Virus record (IMG/VR): IMGVR_UViG_3300032219_002227
Location: 1 to 64,000 of that record
Strand: one strand, 5' to 3'
Length of the DNA stretch: 64,000 nt
DNA from: a virus
Lineage: Duplodnaviria; Caudoviricetes
In this document: piece by piece, positions 19,362-56,929 of the stretch
How the letters are laid out: the number at the start of each line of letters is the position of its first letter
Numbering within the stretch: the first letter of the stretch is position 1
The notes under the pieces: generated by a model
Databases searched by the model: none
What the model was told of the DNA's origin: nothing
Seen by the model: only the letters and a program-made list of their open reading frames with translations
Program-made: the position numbers and the translations under genes

Positions 19362-19699
19362 TGAATATATTTAAAGGTTTTATATTTGGTTTAATAGCTC
19401 AAATACTTACATTTATTCAATTACAAGGACAAATGAAGTATGATTTTTTAAAAAATAATTTGTGGTTTACAGCATTCCTAGGAGTACCAATCTCACTACT
19501 ATTTATGTTTTCAGTTCGTAGCCTAGTAACAGCATATAATGGTGAAATGTGGCCATCACGTTTAATAGGATTTGGAATTGGAGTAATAGTATTTGCTCTC
19601 ATGTCTCATTATATGTTTAAAGAACCTATAACTCCTAAAACACTTACTTGTTTAGGCTTAGCTTCTATCATACTTTTAATACAACTTATTTGGAAATAA
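19361..19699 (+). CDS. 4-TM membrane protein (DMT/SMR-like)
   Basis: Four hydrophobic helices, FKEPIT loop. Confidence 0.6.
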   Translation: MNIFKGFIFGLIAQILTFIQLQGQMKYDFLKNNLWFTAFLGVPISLLFMFSVRSLVTAYNGEMWPSRLIGFGIGVIVFALMSHYMFKEPITPKTLTCLGLASIILLIQLIWK

Positions 19700-19700
19700 T

Positions 19701-20432
19701 ATGGAAAAACAACTATTAACATCAGTGATCGAAAAGTATTACTTAGGTGGAATACACGAGAAGGTAAAATGGACAATTAAAGACAAGAAAATAACAATCC
19801 TATTTACATCTACAACTAAAGATCTAGCAGGATCGATCGAAGCAGATGGATTTGATTTGGATGATTGCGTTATAGGAGTATACGATACAAATAAATTACT
19901 CAAATTAATTAATATTACTAATCAATTTGTTCAATTAGGTGTTGAAACTAAAAATGGAACAGCAACTAAACTATCAATTGCTGATAATGAGTATGATTTA
20001 GTTTATCATCTTGCTGATTTAAGAATGATGTCTACCGAAACAATGGTACTAGATGAATCACAAATTGATTTTAATTATTCATTCACTATCGATTCTGACT
20101 TTATAGAACGATACAATAAGGCTAAAAAAGCATTAGGTAGTGATGAGGTAAGAATACAAGCATTATTTAATGAAGAAGGTGATAAAGGCATCTACTTCAC
20201 ATTAGGTGGTAAAACATCACATGATGATAAAATTAGCTTTCAATCTACCGATTCTGTATTTAGTGTTCCATCTAGTGAATATCAATTCAATGCTAATTAT
20301 TTACTAGAAATATTTACAGAAAATAAAGGAGCAGATGGAACAGGTAAATTTGATGAGAATGGAATATTAAAGTTAGAGTTTATAGATGAGAGAAATATTA
20401 AAAGCTTATATTATCTCCCACCTAAGAACTAA
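19701..20432 (+). CDS. Putative DNA sliding clamp
   Basis: 243 aa, acidic, beta-rich; near PolB and clamp loader. Confidence 0.6.
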   Translation: MEKQLLTSVIEKYYLGGIHEKVKWTIKDKKITILFTSTTKDLAGSIEADGFDLDDCVIGVYDTNKLLKLINITNQFVQLGVETKNGTATKLSIADNEYDLVYHLADLRMMSTETMVLDESQIDFNYSFTIDSDFIERYNKAKKALGSDEVRIQALFNEEGDKGIYFTLGGKTSHDDKISFQSTDSVFSVPSSEYQFNANYLLEIFTENKGADGTGKFDENGILKLEFIDERNIKSLYYLPPKN

Positions 20433-20451
20433 TCCGTATATATTTATTACC

Positions 20452-21118
20452 GAAGATACATGACAGGTCTTCACCTATTAATTAACCGCATACCTTAGGG
20501 ATGCACAAATAAAAATAAAATGAGTAAAACTACAGACGTGTTCGTAGTAACGAATGCAAACAGCACATTAACAGGCGGACTTACCTTAACAGGAGGCGCT
20601 TATAGTACAAACACTTATAACACAGGAGGTTATATTACTAATAGCCTCGTTAATTACCCCACTTATAATGACTTTTGGAAATTTGATGAAGAATTTGATC
20701 TTCTTTGGAAATCATTCTTCTCAAATGAAGGCTACAGACCAATCAAAGAAAAAGTAGCAGGCGTACCTTGCGACATCCAAGAAACAGATAATGGTCTACG
20801 TATTGAACTCGCAGCAGTAGGCCTTGAAAAATCAGATATTGATATTATTGTTGATTCAGAAACACTTCGTGTTGCTTATCGTAAGAATGATAAGGAAGAG
20901 GAAGCAGATAAGAATGAGTACAGATATCTATTACGCTCAATTAAAAAATCAAGTTTTGATCTTGCTTGGAAAATTTCAAGCAAATATGAATTAGCTAAAT
21001 TAGAAGCTAAATTAGAAAAAGGATTATTAACTTTGGATATTCCATTTGCAAAGGAAAATAAACCAACAAAGGTTACGATTAAATAAGTTTTGAAAACCGA
21101 AGACCTGTCATTATCTTC
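20452..21118. repeat. Inverted repeat pair enclosing hsp20
   Basis: GAAGATACATGACAGGTCTTC (20452-20472) and GAAGACCTGTCATTATCTTC (21099-21118): 20 bp plus one bulged C. Confidence 0.9.
20520..21086 (+). CDS. Small heat-shock protein (Hsp20)
   Basis: DIQET, ELAAVGLEKSDIDI, AKLEKGLLTLDIP, C-terminal VTI. Confidence 0.9.
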   Translation: MSKTTDVFVVTNANSTLTGGLTLTGGAYSTNTYNTGGYITNSLVNYPTYNDFWKFDEEFDLLWKSFFSNEGYRPIKEKVAGVPCDIQETDNGLRIELAAVGLEKSDIDIIVDSETLRVAYRKNDKEEEADKNEYRYLLRSIKKSSFDLAWKISSKYELAKLEAKLEKGLLTLDIPFAKENKPTKVTIK

Positions 21119-21123
21119 ATTTT

Positions 21124-21315
21124 ATGGAAACATTAGTTATACAAAAAGAAGCAAACTGGGATAGGATTGCTTATTTGAAACTAGTAAATGATAAAGTAGT
21201 ATTTGATGATTCATGGGAAGAATATGGTCCTGTTGAATTTGATTTATCAATATTAGAAGAAGCAATTTTAAAACATAAACAAAAAATAGAAAATGAAAAT
21301 AAAACCACTGCATAA
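21124..21315 (+). CDS. Hypothetical protein
   Basis: ORF directly after a promoter-like element. Confidence 0.65.
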   Translation: METLVIQKEANWDRIAYLKLVNDKVVFDDSWEEYGPVEFDLSILEEAILKHKQKIENENKTTA

Positions 21316-21583
21316 TCACATTGTGATTAAACAACAAGACGAGACAGAAACAATGTATGGAAACATTGTAGTACCTGATATGGGTAAAGAAAAACCACTT
21401 ATGGGTGAAGTAGTAGCTGTAGGACCTGGAATGTATACAATTACAGGAACTTGGATTGATACTAATGTTCGAAAGGGTGAAATTGTAGTATTCCCAGCTT
21501 TTGGAGGAACTAAAATGACTGTTGAAGGTGAAGAATACATTGTAATGAAAGAACAAGATTTGTTAGCAATTTTAGAAAAATAA
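21293..21583 (+). CDS. groES: Co-chaperonin GroES
   Basis: MKIKPL, GEVVAVGPG, EQDLLAIL. Confidence 0.95.
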   Translation: MKIKPLHNHIVIKQQDETETMYGNIVVPDMGKEKPLMGEVVAVGPGMYTITGTWIDTNVRKGEIVVFPAFGGTKMTVEGEEYIVMKEQDLLAILEK

Positions 21584-21586
21584 TAT

Positions 21587-23197
21587 ATGAGTAAAATAAT
21601 TAAATTTGATCGCGACGCAAAAGAAAAACTACAGACCGGTATTAAAAAAGTACACGATGCTGTAACGGTTACAATGGGTCCTTTTGGACGTAATGTATTA
21701 ATTGAAAAAGAACATGGACAAGTAGCCTCAACTAAAGATGGTGTTACTGTTGCTAAAACCATTACATTGGAAGATCCAATCGAAAATATGGGTGCAACTG
21801 TAATTAAACAAGCAGCATCTAAAACAGTTGACCAAGCAGGTGATGGTACAACTACATCTACATTGTTGGCTTATAGTATTGCTAATCAAGCACTTGAATT
21901 GACTTCAAAACCATCAGTTAATGTTACTCAAGTAAAATATGGTATTGAAGCTGCTGTTAGGAATATTGTTAGTGAACTTAAATCAATGTCTGTAGACATT
22001 ACTGATGAAAAGCAAATCAAACAAATTGCTACACTCTCAGCTAATGGTGACGGAGAAATTGGAGAATTAGTAGCTACAGCTATCGATAAAGTAGGCAGAG
22101 ATGGTATTGTAACAGTAGAAGAATCACGTTCAGGTGAAACATCACTTGAAGTAGTAGAAGGTCTTCAATTTGACCGCGGTTACAAATCACCTTATATGGT
22201 GACCGATAACAATACAATGCAAGCAGTACTTACAGATGCTTCTATTTTGTTATATGATGGTAGAATTAGCACTATAAAAGATCTATTACCTATACTTGAA
22301 CGTATCTCCTCAGACAATAAATCATTATTGATTGTAGCTGAAGATATTGATGGAGAAGCACTTTCAACACTCATTGTAAATAAAATGAGAGGTATCTTAA
22401 AAGTAGTAGCTGTTAAAGCACCTGATTTTGGAGATCGTAGAACACTTATTCTTGAAGATATTGCTATTGTAACAGGCGGTACTGTAATTTCACCACAAAA
22501 AGGAATGAAATTAGATAAGTTTAATATGTCTTGGTTAGGTACTGCTAGAACTGTTACGGTAGGCAAAGATACAACTACGATCGTTGATGGTAAAGGCGAA
22601 ACTGAAAAAATTGATGCTCGTATTAATGAATTAAAAGCTCAAATTGATACTAATAATTCACCATATGAAGTAGAACGTTTACAAGATCGTTTAGCTAAGA
22701 TTGTAGGTGGTGTAGCTATTATTAATGTTGGTGGTGGTACTGAAGTTGAAATGAAAGAAAGAAAAGATCGTATTGATGATGCACTCCAAGCAACTAAAGC
22801 TGCACTTGAAGAAGGTATTGTACCTGGTGCTGGTATGGCTTTATTTAATGCTAGAAATGCTATTAATAATAGAGATAATAGTGATTCTGGATTAGGTGGT
22901 CAAATTGTATTTAAAGCATGTTCAACTCCACTTAATAAAATTTTAACTAATGCTGGTGAAGATTATTACGAATGGGTTTCAATTCTAAAAGATAGAAATG
23001 CTGTTCCTGATATTGTAGGAGACAGAACAGTAGATGCTTTCAAATCAGGTATTATCGATCCAACTAAAGTAGTACGTTGTGCACTTGAAAATGCAGCTGC
23101 AGCCGCCACTACATTATTGATGACAGAATGTGTTATTTATAATAAACAAGAAGATAAGAAAAAAGAAGAGATTGATATGGCAGGATTTGGAATGTAA
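21587..23197 (+). CDS. groEL: Chaperonin GroEL
   Basis: TMGPFGRNV, TKDGVTVAK, AGDGTTT, FDRGY, KAPDFGDRR, GIIDPTKVVR. Confidence 0.97.
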   Translation: MSKIIKFDRDAKEKLQTGIKKVHDAVTVTMGPFGRNVLIEKEHGQVASTKDGVTVAKTITLEDPIENMGATVIKQAASKTVDQAGDGTTTSTLLAYSIANQALELTSKPSVNVTQVKYGIEAAVRNIVSELKSMSVDITDEKQIKQIATLSANGDGEIGELVATAIDKVGRDGIVTVEESRSGETSLEVVEGLQFDRGYKSPYMVTDNNTMQAVLTDASILLYDGRISTIKDLLPILERISSDNKSLLIVAEDIDGEALSTLIVNKMRGILKVVAVKAPDFGDRRTLILEDIAIVTGGTVISPQKGMKLDKFNMSWLGTARTVTVGKDTTTIVDGKGETEKIDARINELKAQIDTNNSPYEVERLQDRLAKIVGGVAIINVGGGTEVEMKERKDRIDDALQATKAALEEGIVPGAGMALFNARNAINNRDNSDSGLGGQIVFKACSTPLNKILTNAGEDYYEWVSILKDRNAVPDIVGDRTVDAFKSGIIDPTKVVRCALENAAAAATTLLMTECVIYNKQEDKKKEEIDMAGFGM

Positions 23198-55805: not shown

Positions 55806-55892
55806 GCCCTTGTGGTGGAATAGGTAGACACGCAGGACTTAAAATCCTGTTCGCTGAAAAAGCGAGTGCGGGTTCGATTCCCGCTGGGGGCA
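55806..55892 (+). tRNA. tRNA-Leu (anticodon TAA), CCA not encoded
   Basis: CAGGA-CTTAAAA-TCCTG anticodon arm, long variable arm, GCGGG-TTCGATT-CCCGC. Confidence 0.95.
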
Positions 55893-55893
55893 C

Positions 55894-56205
55894 ATTAGTT
55901 ACTGTTCTTTGACATATAAGGAGAAACAAATTATGGAAACACTATCATTCATTTTAGGGATAGCGTTTGTGGTGGTTATTGCTATTGCAGTAGTTGCTGT
56001 TTACGCTTTCGTTAGGGTAAATAAAGTAAAAGAATATTTAGAAAGTACAGAAAGGCACTTTAGTCATGAAATAAGTAATGTTTATCAAGAAATGGCAAGT
56101 CGTACTGATGATATTACTCGTTCAATGGACTCACGTTTTGATAAATTAGAAAATAAATTAACAAATAACAAATAAAAAATAAATAAGTCAAAGACAGTAA
56201 CTAAT
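55894..56205. repeat. Inverted repeat pair enclosing a small membrane-protein gene
   Basis: ATTAGTTACTGTTCTTTGAC (55894-55913) and GTCAAAGACAGTAACTAAT (56187-56205): 19 bp plus one bulged T. Confidence 0.9.
55933..56175 (+). CDS. Single-TM plus coiled-coil protein (ATG at 55933 preferred over TTG at 55909)
   Basis: METLSFILGIAFVVVIAIAVVAVYAF...; AAGGAG at 55918-55923. Confidence 0.78.
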   Translation: METLSFILGIAFVVVIAIAVVAVYAFVRVNKVKEYLESTERHFSHEISNVYQEMASRTDDITRSMDSRFDKLENKLTNNK

Positions 56206-56215
56206 ATTTATATAT

Positions 56216-56544: not shown

Positions 56545-56929
56545 GGGGATAACCGGTATCGATCCGGATGTAGAGGTAATACTACATGCAGGCATTTGAG
56601 TATACTGCCTTAGAAGATACTAAACAATAAACGCTGAAGAATTATCTTCATTCACTTTCGAAGATGCAATGTCTTTCGTTGGTGCTGATTACGCAGTAGC
56701 TGCCTAATCAAACACGGGTAAGTAACCTAGGAACAGAACTACTTTGAGTATTCACGATCGACTCATTAAATAAGGACTGTGGATTAGTTTCTTGATGTCA
56801 TAAATCAAGTGGTGGAAACGACCATAACGGTCAGCCCTACTGATCAGATTCGTTCAGATCTAAGCATGTGAGACGTTAGTATTATTGTCTCTTTCGGAGA
56901 CGTGGGTTCGAATCCCACTATCTCCACCA
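56545..56929 (+). ncRNA. ssrA: tmRNA
   Basis: GGGGATA/TATCTCC-ACCA acceptor with G3.U70; GTGGG-TTCGAAT-CCCAC T-arm; tag frame 56633-56707 AEELSSFTFEDAMSFVGADYAVAA*. Confidence 0.95.

Follow-up and report, generated by a model that had tools for sequence, protein, structure and literature searches.

An end-to-end mRNA helix, in which the 5′ UTR of a message pairs with its own 3′ UTR, has been described for few bacterial mRNAs, and we found no report of one from a DNA phage. In the B. subtilis hbs mRNA, a 14-bp helix joining the 5′ UTR to the 3′ UTR modulates how readily nucleases reach the leader (Braun, Durand & Condon 2017, PMC5737220). The hok mRNA of plasmid R1 pairs its 5′ and 3′ ends through the tac/fbi interaction, which shows phylogenetic covariation and yields a compact, stable RNA (PMC9841398). 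In S. aureus, the icaR 3′ UTR pairs with the Shine-Dalgarno (SD) region of the same message, blocks translation, and makes an RNase III site (Ruiz de los Mozos et al. 2013, PMC3868564). Here we describe a predicted helix that closes the whole hsp20 open reading frame of an uncultivated phage. Our literature search found no described phage mRNA panhandle, although such a search is not proof of absence.

How does the phage helix compare with these systems? By its UTR complementarity and covariation, the predicted hsp20 helix belongs with the long-range 5′UTR-3′UTR helices of mRNAs. Its likeness to hbs lies in a long-range helix between the two UTRs of one small, highly expressed mRNA. However, the hbs helix lies over an RNase Y site in a structured leader rather than at the very 5′ end, has no reported overlap with a promoter, and concerns a single bacterial gene rather than a phage lineage with two unrelated genes. 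With hok, the phage message shares the pairing of the ends of a full-length mRNA and the support from covariation. In hok, however, the fold-back blocks translation until the 3′ end is trimmed, within a toxin-antitoxin circuit that includes an antisense RNA, whereas the start region of phage hsp20 is open, with no sign of a toxin or an antisense partner. The icaR mRNA likewise pairs its 3′ UTR with its 5′ UTR, but phage hsp20 has no SD and its helix lies 46-63 nt upstream of the AUG. We rejected a helix that sequesters the ribosome binding site, as in the icaR and hok subtypes, because the phage helix ends well before the AUG, SD motifs are not used, and the leader is unpaired in the predicted fold. 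Set against all three systems, the phage helix is clear of the ribosome binding region, begins at the predicted transcript end, overlies the putative promoter of the next gene, occurs in a DNA phage, and recurs on two unrelated genes.

Two further classes of RNA offer partial parallels. In rRNA precursors, flanking sequences pair over hundreds to thousands of nucleotides to form a helix of about 20 bp around a functional RNA, and in phage T7, intergenic RNase III helices define and stabilise mRNA ends. The rRNA stems differ in enclosing non-coding RNA and the T7 sites in being local hairpins. The comparative support for the phage helix is strong, with about 60 loci and repeated independent compensatory changes, and the layout occurs twice, with unrelated sequences, in one phage lineage whose genes lack SD motifs. 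The hsp20 frame, which consists of the 5′ arm, a hairpin, and the 3′ arm, qualifies as a candidate for a new RNA family, one absent from Rfam.

The hsp20 locus and its long-range helix

The window, which is the whole stretch of DNA analysed here, comprises the first 64 kb of a phage genome record of 173,246 bp, which has direct terminal repeats and a G+C content of 31%. Among 50,697 phage records, no cultured relative matched it in DNA or in the hsp20 protein, and the nearest DNA polymerase is that of Microcystis phage Mel-JY01, at 35% identity. The lineage is one of uncultivated freshwater T4-like phages. The genes of the region all lie on one strand. Upstream of hsp20 is a 243-aa ORF without a Pfam match, which we label the clamp-like gene, and hsp20 is the sole gene within the loop, as nothing else is credibly encoded between the arms. 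The features of the locus are as follows.

20440-20447, + strand: phage promoter-like box ATATTTAT, recognised by its intergenic enrichment and its spacing to the helix in relatives
20452-20472, + strand: 5′ arm of the long-range helix, 21 nt, GAAGATACATGACAGGTCTTC, with a bulged C at 20459
20488-20504, + strand: conserved 5′UTR hairpin: stem of 4 bp, A.G mismatch, two C-G pairs and UUA loop, with ACCUUAGGG invariant
20505-20519, + strand: A-rich leader without a Shine-Dalgarno motif, unpaired in the full-mRNA fold
20520-21086, + strand: hsp20, small heat-shock protein (sHSP) of 188 aa (Pfam HSP20 at 1.4e-9)
21087-21097, + strand: conserved GTTTTGAAAAC element, with TTTG at 21089-21092 and TTGAAA at 21090-21095
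21099-21118, + strand: 3′ arm of the long-range helix, 20 nt
21112-21119, + strand: TATCTTCA box within the 3′ arm, a possible promoter box of the next gene that resembles the TATATTCA and TATATTTA boxes
21124-21315, + strand: gene of 63 aa following hsp20, called as an ORF and without a match in the family search
21293-21583, + strand: groES, downstream of the 63-aa gene
21587-23197, + strand: groEL, directly after groES

The reverse complement of 21099-21118 equals 20452-20472 apart from the partnerless C at 20459. The original prediction of an inverted repeat with one bulged C and with arms in the 5′ and 3′ UTRs is thus confirmed. The arms are separated by 626 nt; the 5′ arm is 48 nt upstream of the ATG of hsp20, and the 3′ arm 12 nt past the stop codon. 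The perfect core of the repeat is 13 nt long, and the gapped helix of 20 bp has an energy of -31.5 kcal/mol. In folds of the complete 673-nt mRNA, the helix closes the minimum-energy structure as well as the centroid (z = -9.1).

Could such a repeat arise by chance? Bare inverted repeats of 13 nt are common in this A+T-rich genome, with 35 of that length within 3 kb. The 13-mer core, however, occurs at only two sites in the 173,246-bp genome, namely the two arms, and the 20-mer has no further copy in the window even with up to three mismatches allowed (0 expected from 100 shuffles). We also scanned 259 pairs of neighbouring intergenic regions within 3 kb for gapped helices, using windows of 28 nt since duplex folding of whole intergenic regions favoured long regions. 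The scan placed the hsp20 helix first among helices between separate intergenic regions. The only better scores came from repeated local hairpins, which pair trivially with each other; copies of such hairpins apart, the hsp20 pair was the strongest of the 259. Among 1500 distant intergenic pairs that served as a control, none fell below -24.5 kcal/mol. Uniqueness in the genome and the intergenic-pair controls together rule out a chance origin of the hsp20 helix.

Conservation and strand of the helix

Relatives were collected by protein searches followed by protein-alignment searches of IMG/VR and metagenome contigs, which gave 48 loci with both flanks, corresponding to 31 distinct arm pairs at protein identities of 55-90%. 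The helix is kept in all 48, with energies of -24 to -36 kcal/mol. It measures 16-22 bp, several loci having only 16 bp, and contains 0-2 bulged or mismatched positions. From helix to ATG the distance is 41-63 nt, and from stop codon to helix it is 4-21 nt.

The arms have changed together. Taking the pairing of the window as reference, we scored a MAFFT alignment of the complete region, which is imperfect for clades L011, L013, L043, and L075, and found 93% of helix cells paired, compared with 37-47% when the 3′ partner was slid by 1-3 columns. The alignment of hsp20 flanks from relatives, suggested at the outset as a search for compensatory changes, revealed both-sided changes in ten pairs (69 cells), and none of 500 shuffles reached the observed covariation. 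On a tree built from coding columns only, where possible recombination blurs the counts and makes them approximate, columns 66/900 changed from C-G to U-A four times, each time on both sides, columns 65/901 changed from A-U to G-C three times, and columns 73/892 account for 6-7 changes. Indels in one arm are also matched in the opposite arm. For example, 5′ GAUAC-AU-GACAGG faces 3′ CCUGUC-AU-UAUC with a bulged C in one form, and 5′ GAUAC-GACAGG faces 3′ CCUGUC-G-UAUC as a perfect helix in the other. Five central pairs of the helix are invariant, which points to an extra, sequence-specific constraint.

The kinds of imperfect pair that are tolerated reveal the strand on which the constraint acts. 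Helix columns contain 54 cells with G.U or U.G and 11 with A.C or C.A. Within the helix interior the difference is 51 to 4, and those 4 cells fall in rows that MAFFT misaligned; the outermost 5′ base is A or G depending on the locus and faces a constant U. A G.U pair in the + strand would be a mismatch on the opposite strand or in DNA, and the excess of G.U over A.C therefore indicates that the constraint acts on RNA of the + strand. Comparison among these loci shows that the two arms are selected to pair as a 16-22-bp RNA helix in the hsp20 sense transcript, with the whole ORF predicted to be looped out between the first nucleotides of the message and a site 11-16 nt beyond its stop codon, and that this putative structure has been kept by selection across a freshwater T4-like phage lineage. 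The central claim of the original prediction, that the 5′ end of the hsp20 mRNA pairs with its 3′ UTR, is thus strongly supported at the level of sequence by 48 loci and a further 12 described below, by compensatory changes, and by the G.U excess. That one RNA would carry both arms is suggested indirectly by the promoter box ahead of the 5′ arm and by the lack of a terminator ahead of the 3′ arm.

Boxes, hairpins, and a second panhandle

The 5′ arm starts 5 nt after the end of the ATATTTAT box. This octamer is not enriched across the window overall (18 copies compared with 24.8 expected), where copies lie for instance at 2351, 12265, 26190, 52136, 56204, and 63504. In the whole genome, 44 of its 58 + strand copies touch intergenic DNA, which makes up 5% of the sequence and would be expected to account for 2.9, and its reverse complement has no such preference. 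In five genes the A of the start codon falls at +5 relative to the end of a ATATTTAT box, which implies leaderless transcripts starting there. Two of these genes are at 56204 and 63504, and the other three lie outside the window. The idea that the hsp20 helix begins at the predicted start of the transcript fares less evenly. It fits the +5 rule in 22 of about 35 relatives with the box, 19 of them having the first paired base at +5 and the other 3 at +4, but in about one third of relatives the box lies 10-16 nt from the first paired base. Some clades with a distant box lengthen the helix outward, by ATAAC/GTTAT in L009 and by AATA/TATT in L064 and L066, but others do not.

Between the 5′ arm and the start codon lies a second conserved structure, the hairpin at 20488-20504. 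Its cells are paired in 94% of cases, three of its pairs have changed on both sides, and 9-14 changes are counted on the gene tree. The motif is unique in the genome, and the hairpin ends 15 nt before the AUG and masks no start codon. It may be a candidate binding site for some factor. No Rfam family, thermometers included, matched positions 20300-21300 at E up to 10. We rejected an sHSP RNA thermometer of the ROSE, fourU, or similar type, as there is no Rfam match and the conserved hairpin leaves the SD/AUG region unmasked. The 5′ arm alone can form only a weak local hairpin, GAAGAU/GUCUUC, at -5.1 kcal/mol. Hairpin starts as a general rule for late mRNAs were also rejected: crude prefix folding after ATATTTAT boxes, with a cut-off of -5 kcal/mol or below, found them in 21% of 24 leaders and at 15% of random positions. 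In the absence of an excess of 5′-terminal hairpins after ATATTTAT, paired 5′ ends are not a rule in this phage. Translation signals follow a pattern of their own. An SD-like 4-mer precedes 15 of the 244 genes in the whole genome, compared with a background of 10.5%, so SD motifs are avoided, and the genes have an A-rich peak at -14 to -10 before their start codons. The scarcity of SD motifs and the A-rich peak point to a host with SD-independent initiation.

On the 3′ side, the GTTTTGAAAAC element after the stop codon, of which the genome has no other intergenic copy, is kept in nearly all relatives. In one clade (L011:2900-3000 and L013:1315-1410), GTTTTGA(AAAC) stands just after the 5′ arm instead of before the 3′ arm; it still adjoins the inner end of the helix there and lengthens the helix in L013. 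The 3′ arm lies inside a TTTG-N19-TATCTTCA unit. Indels occur in the arm, yet exactly 19 nt separate TTTG from TA(T)NTT in 36 of 38 distinct loci, which indicates a spacing constraint of the kind expected of DNA. The next ATG follows the TATCTTCA box by 3-4 nt in six distinct loci, the window included, and by 10-29 nt in most others. The Bacteroidota-type promoter consensus has TTTG at -33, a spacer of about 19 nt, and TAnnTTTG at -7; the box in the 3′ arm matches only the TAnnTT part of TAnnTTTG. The same region also fits a sigma-70-like match, TTGAAA-16-TATCTT. No intergenic match to the full TTTG-N19-TAnnTTTG consensus exists in the genome, and GTTTTGAAA, which follows the hsp20 stop codon, was rejected as a recurrent promoter element, with only one intergenic copy in the genome.

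The proposal that the right arm overlaps the next promoter gains from the invariant 19-nt spacing in 36 of 38 loci, but the unit does not recur in the genome's intergenic regions. A companion proposal, that the 5′ arm acts on the downstream groES/EL promoter region, found nothing in its support. We hypothesise that the 3′ arm doubles as a promoter in DNA and as a helix strand in RNA. If so, the locus would offer a natural test case of one DNA segment serving as both promoter and structural RNA arm.

Other gene joints of the phage show what local structures look like in this genome. Between 65838 and 75755, beyond the window, eight strong local stem-loops run straight into TATATT(T/C)A boxes, and several of them are near-copies of one hairpin (AGGTGGTCA...TGATCACCT). 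At these joints (65.8-75.8 kb), the TATATTCA and TATATTTA boxes directly follow the local stem-loops. This geometry of a stem running into a box is that of both panhandles, the hsp20 helix and the following one.

55893-55914 and 56186-56206: arms of a second whole-ORF panhandle, the genome's next best helix (-25.3 kcal/mol)
55933-56175: membrane/coiled-coil ORF of 80 aa enclosed by the second panhandle

The second panhandle has the same layout as that of hsp20 and an unrelated sequence. The 3′ end of tRNA-Leu is where its 5′ arm begins, and the next ATATTTAT box directly adjoins its 3′ arm. About 30 related loci retain this helix, many of them with tRNA genes on both sides, and the arm sequences are clade-specific and unrelated in the most distant members. 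Near this tRNA-Leu gene (55806-55893), ARAGORN calls a tmRNA gene at 56545-56929 with the tag peptide AEELSSFTFEDAMSFVGADYAVAA.

Possible roles of the helix

Why would a phage pair the two ends of a message? We favour the reading that the helix protects both mRNA ends and defines the 3′ end, which may well be correct. The 5′ end of hsp20 mRNA would be buried in the duplex, so that 5′-end-dependent enzymes of the RppH, RNase E/G, and RNase J types could not engage. The duplex would also stop 3′ exonucleases, and the hsp20 3′ end would thus be fixed just before the groES promoter. Translation would not be blocked, as the start codon lies 46-63 nt inside the loop, in the A-rich unpaired leader. 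The long-range helix would in this way take the role that local stem-loops have at the phage's other gene joints. The DNA of the 3′ arm would provide the promoter of the next gene with its spacer and its box, and this double use could be why the outer half of the 3′ arm is near-fixed and is tracked by the 5′ arm. Such a message would be a natural test case for the protection and processing of both mRNA ends in hosts that do not use Shine-Dalgarno sequences.

Four observations lead us to favour end protection. First, most loci have the start of the helix at the first nucleotide predicted for the transcript. Second, the helix stands where other joints have local stems. Third, it leaves the start codon free. 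Fourth, the second panhandle sits where tRNA processing would make both ends. After such processing the second message would have a 5′ monophosphate, which is vulnerable, and an exposed 3′ end, and a helix joining the two would be a simple shield. Against this role, the 5′ end would be single-stranded in the third of relatives with a distant box, if the +5 rule holds. Moreover, end protection alone does not account for the use of one long-range helix instead of two local hairpins.

A second reading takes the helix to be a processing stem, which a host RNase III would cut in a read-through RNA that spans the clamp-like gene, hsp20, groES, and groEL. The hsp20 message would be freed much as 16S and 23S rRNA are excised, and its stability would be uncoupled from that of groESL. 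We consider this unlikely, although it is compatible with end protection and does not exclude it. A helix of 16-22 bp, or roughly two helical turns, on the flanks of the RNA to be processed is of suitable size for the enzyme, but several relatives have 16 bp only. The internal loops of T7 RNase III sites resemble the conserved bulge of the hsp20 helix. Polycistronic RNA is likely here, given that the genes are on one strand and that no terminator-like site lies between the clamp-like gene and groES; if the helix starts at the first nucleotide of the transcript, however, there would be nothing to remove on the 5′ side. Our searches of the phage genome found no RNase III domain and no dsRNA-binding domain. 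For cleavage of a 5′/3′ UTR duplex by RNase III, icaR provides a precedent (PMC3868564).

Could the helix instead be one state of a regulatory switch? The arms would then alternate between local hairpins and the long-range helix, through temperature, translation, or the timing of co-transcriptional folding, and the state would control groES/groEL read-through, hsp20 translation, or ribosome recycling. The genes concerned are heat-shock genes, but physiological heat-shock temperatures will not be enough to melt a helix of -31 kcal/mol, which is also well clear of the start codon, 46-63 nt away. Each arm is partly palindromic (GAAGA...UCUUC), covariation expected of a local hairpin is seen at columns 53/73 and 54/72 in the 5′ arm, and the L061 clade keeps the local pair and sacrifices the long-range one; this local hairpin, however, is represented by only 5 independent contrasts (p = 0.125). 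There is a precedent in the hok mRNA, which goes from metastable 5′ hairpins to the 5′/3′ fold-back (PMC9841398), but neither an Rfam thermometer or other RNA family match nor a consistent U-tract after the helix was found in the phage. On this evidence, a switch seems improbable.

We regard with similar doubt the possibility that whole-ORF panhandles are a distinct build of mRNA in this phage lineage. Their helix would form only on a complete message, and it might then act as a long-range terminator or insulator for groES/groEL read-through, or keep both ends close, either so that ligation could make the mRNA circular or, in a host that does without Shine-Dalgarno sequences, so that ribosomes could be recycled. 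In such a panhandle, the 5′ strand of the 3′ stem would have been moved to the start of the message, and the 3′ strand would be an RNA copy of the next promoter. An intrinsic terminator was rejected, since 19600-21700 contains no terminator-like site on the + strand and relatives show no consistent U-richness downstream of the helix. Phage RNA ligases of the Rnl2 type or RtcB, which would be relevant to circularisation, were not found in the genome.

A DNA-level element, whether sites of recombination or inversion, the termini of a mobile cassette with hsp20, or a promoter whose inverted copy is kept similar by gene conversion, is very improbable: the 3′ arm does contain a promoter-like unit with DNA-type conservation of spacing, neighbouring genes differ among relatives, and the UTR frame is 93% identical around sHSPs that are 51% identical, as if alleles had been swapped between flanks, but the differences between arms are biased to G.U on the + strand where DNA symmetry predicts no bias, gene conversion needs more than 20 bp to be efficient, the repeat-bounded segment contains no recombinase or transposase, and the inversion or mobility named beforehand as one possible refutation finds no support, with hsp20 never inverted relative to the promoter box or flanks in about 60 loci and no empty site among the 17 that share the clamp-like gene.

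The frame has also been kept around a different protein. In 12 relatives (among L088-L102; for example L094:3230-3800), the clamp-like gene is followed, at the position of hsp20, by a shorter sHSP of 136-151 aa. Over the alpha-crystallin part its identity is 51%, and it is without the N-terminal 47 residues, which are Thr/Gly-rich. It is as though one allele had been exchanged for another within a conserved RNA frame, and the locus may thus be a natural test case of gene swapping within such a frame. The 5′UTR at these loci is about 93% identical to that of the window, and all 12 keep the helix, the box, the arms, the hairpin, and GTTTTGAAA.
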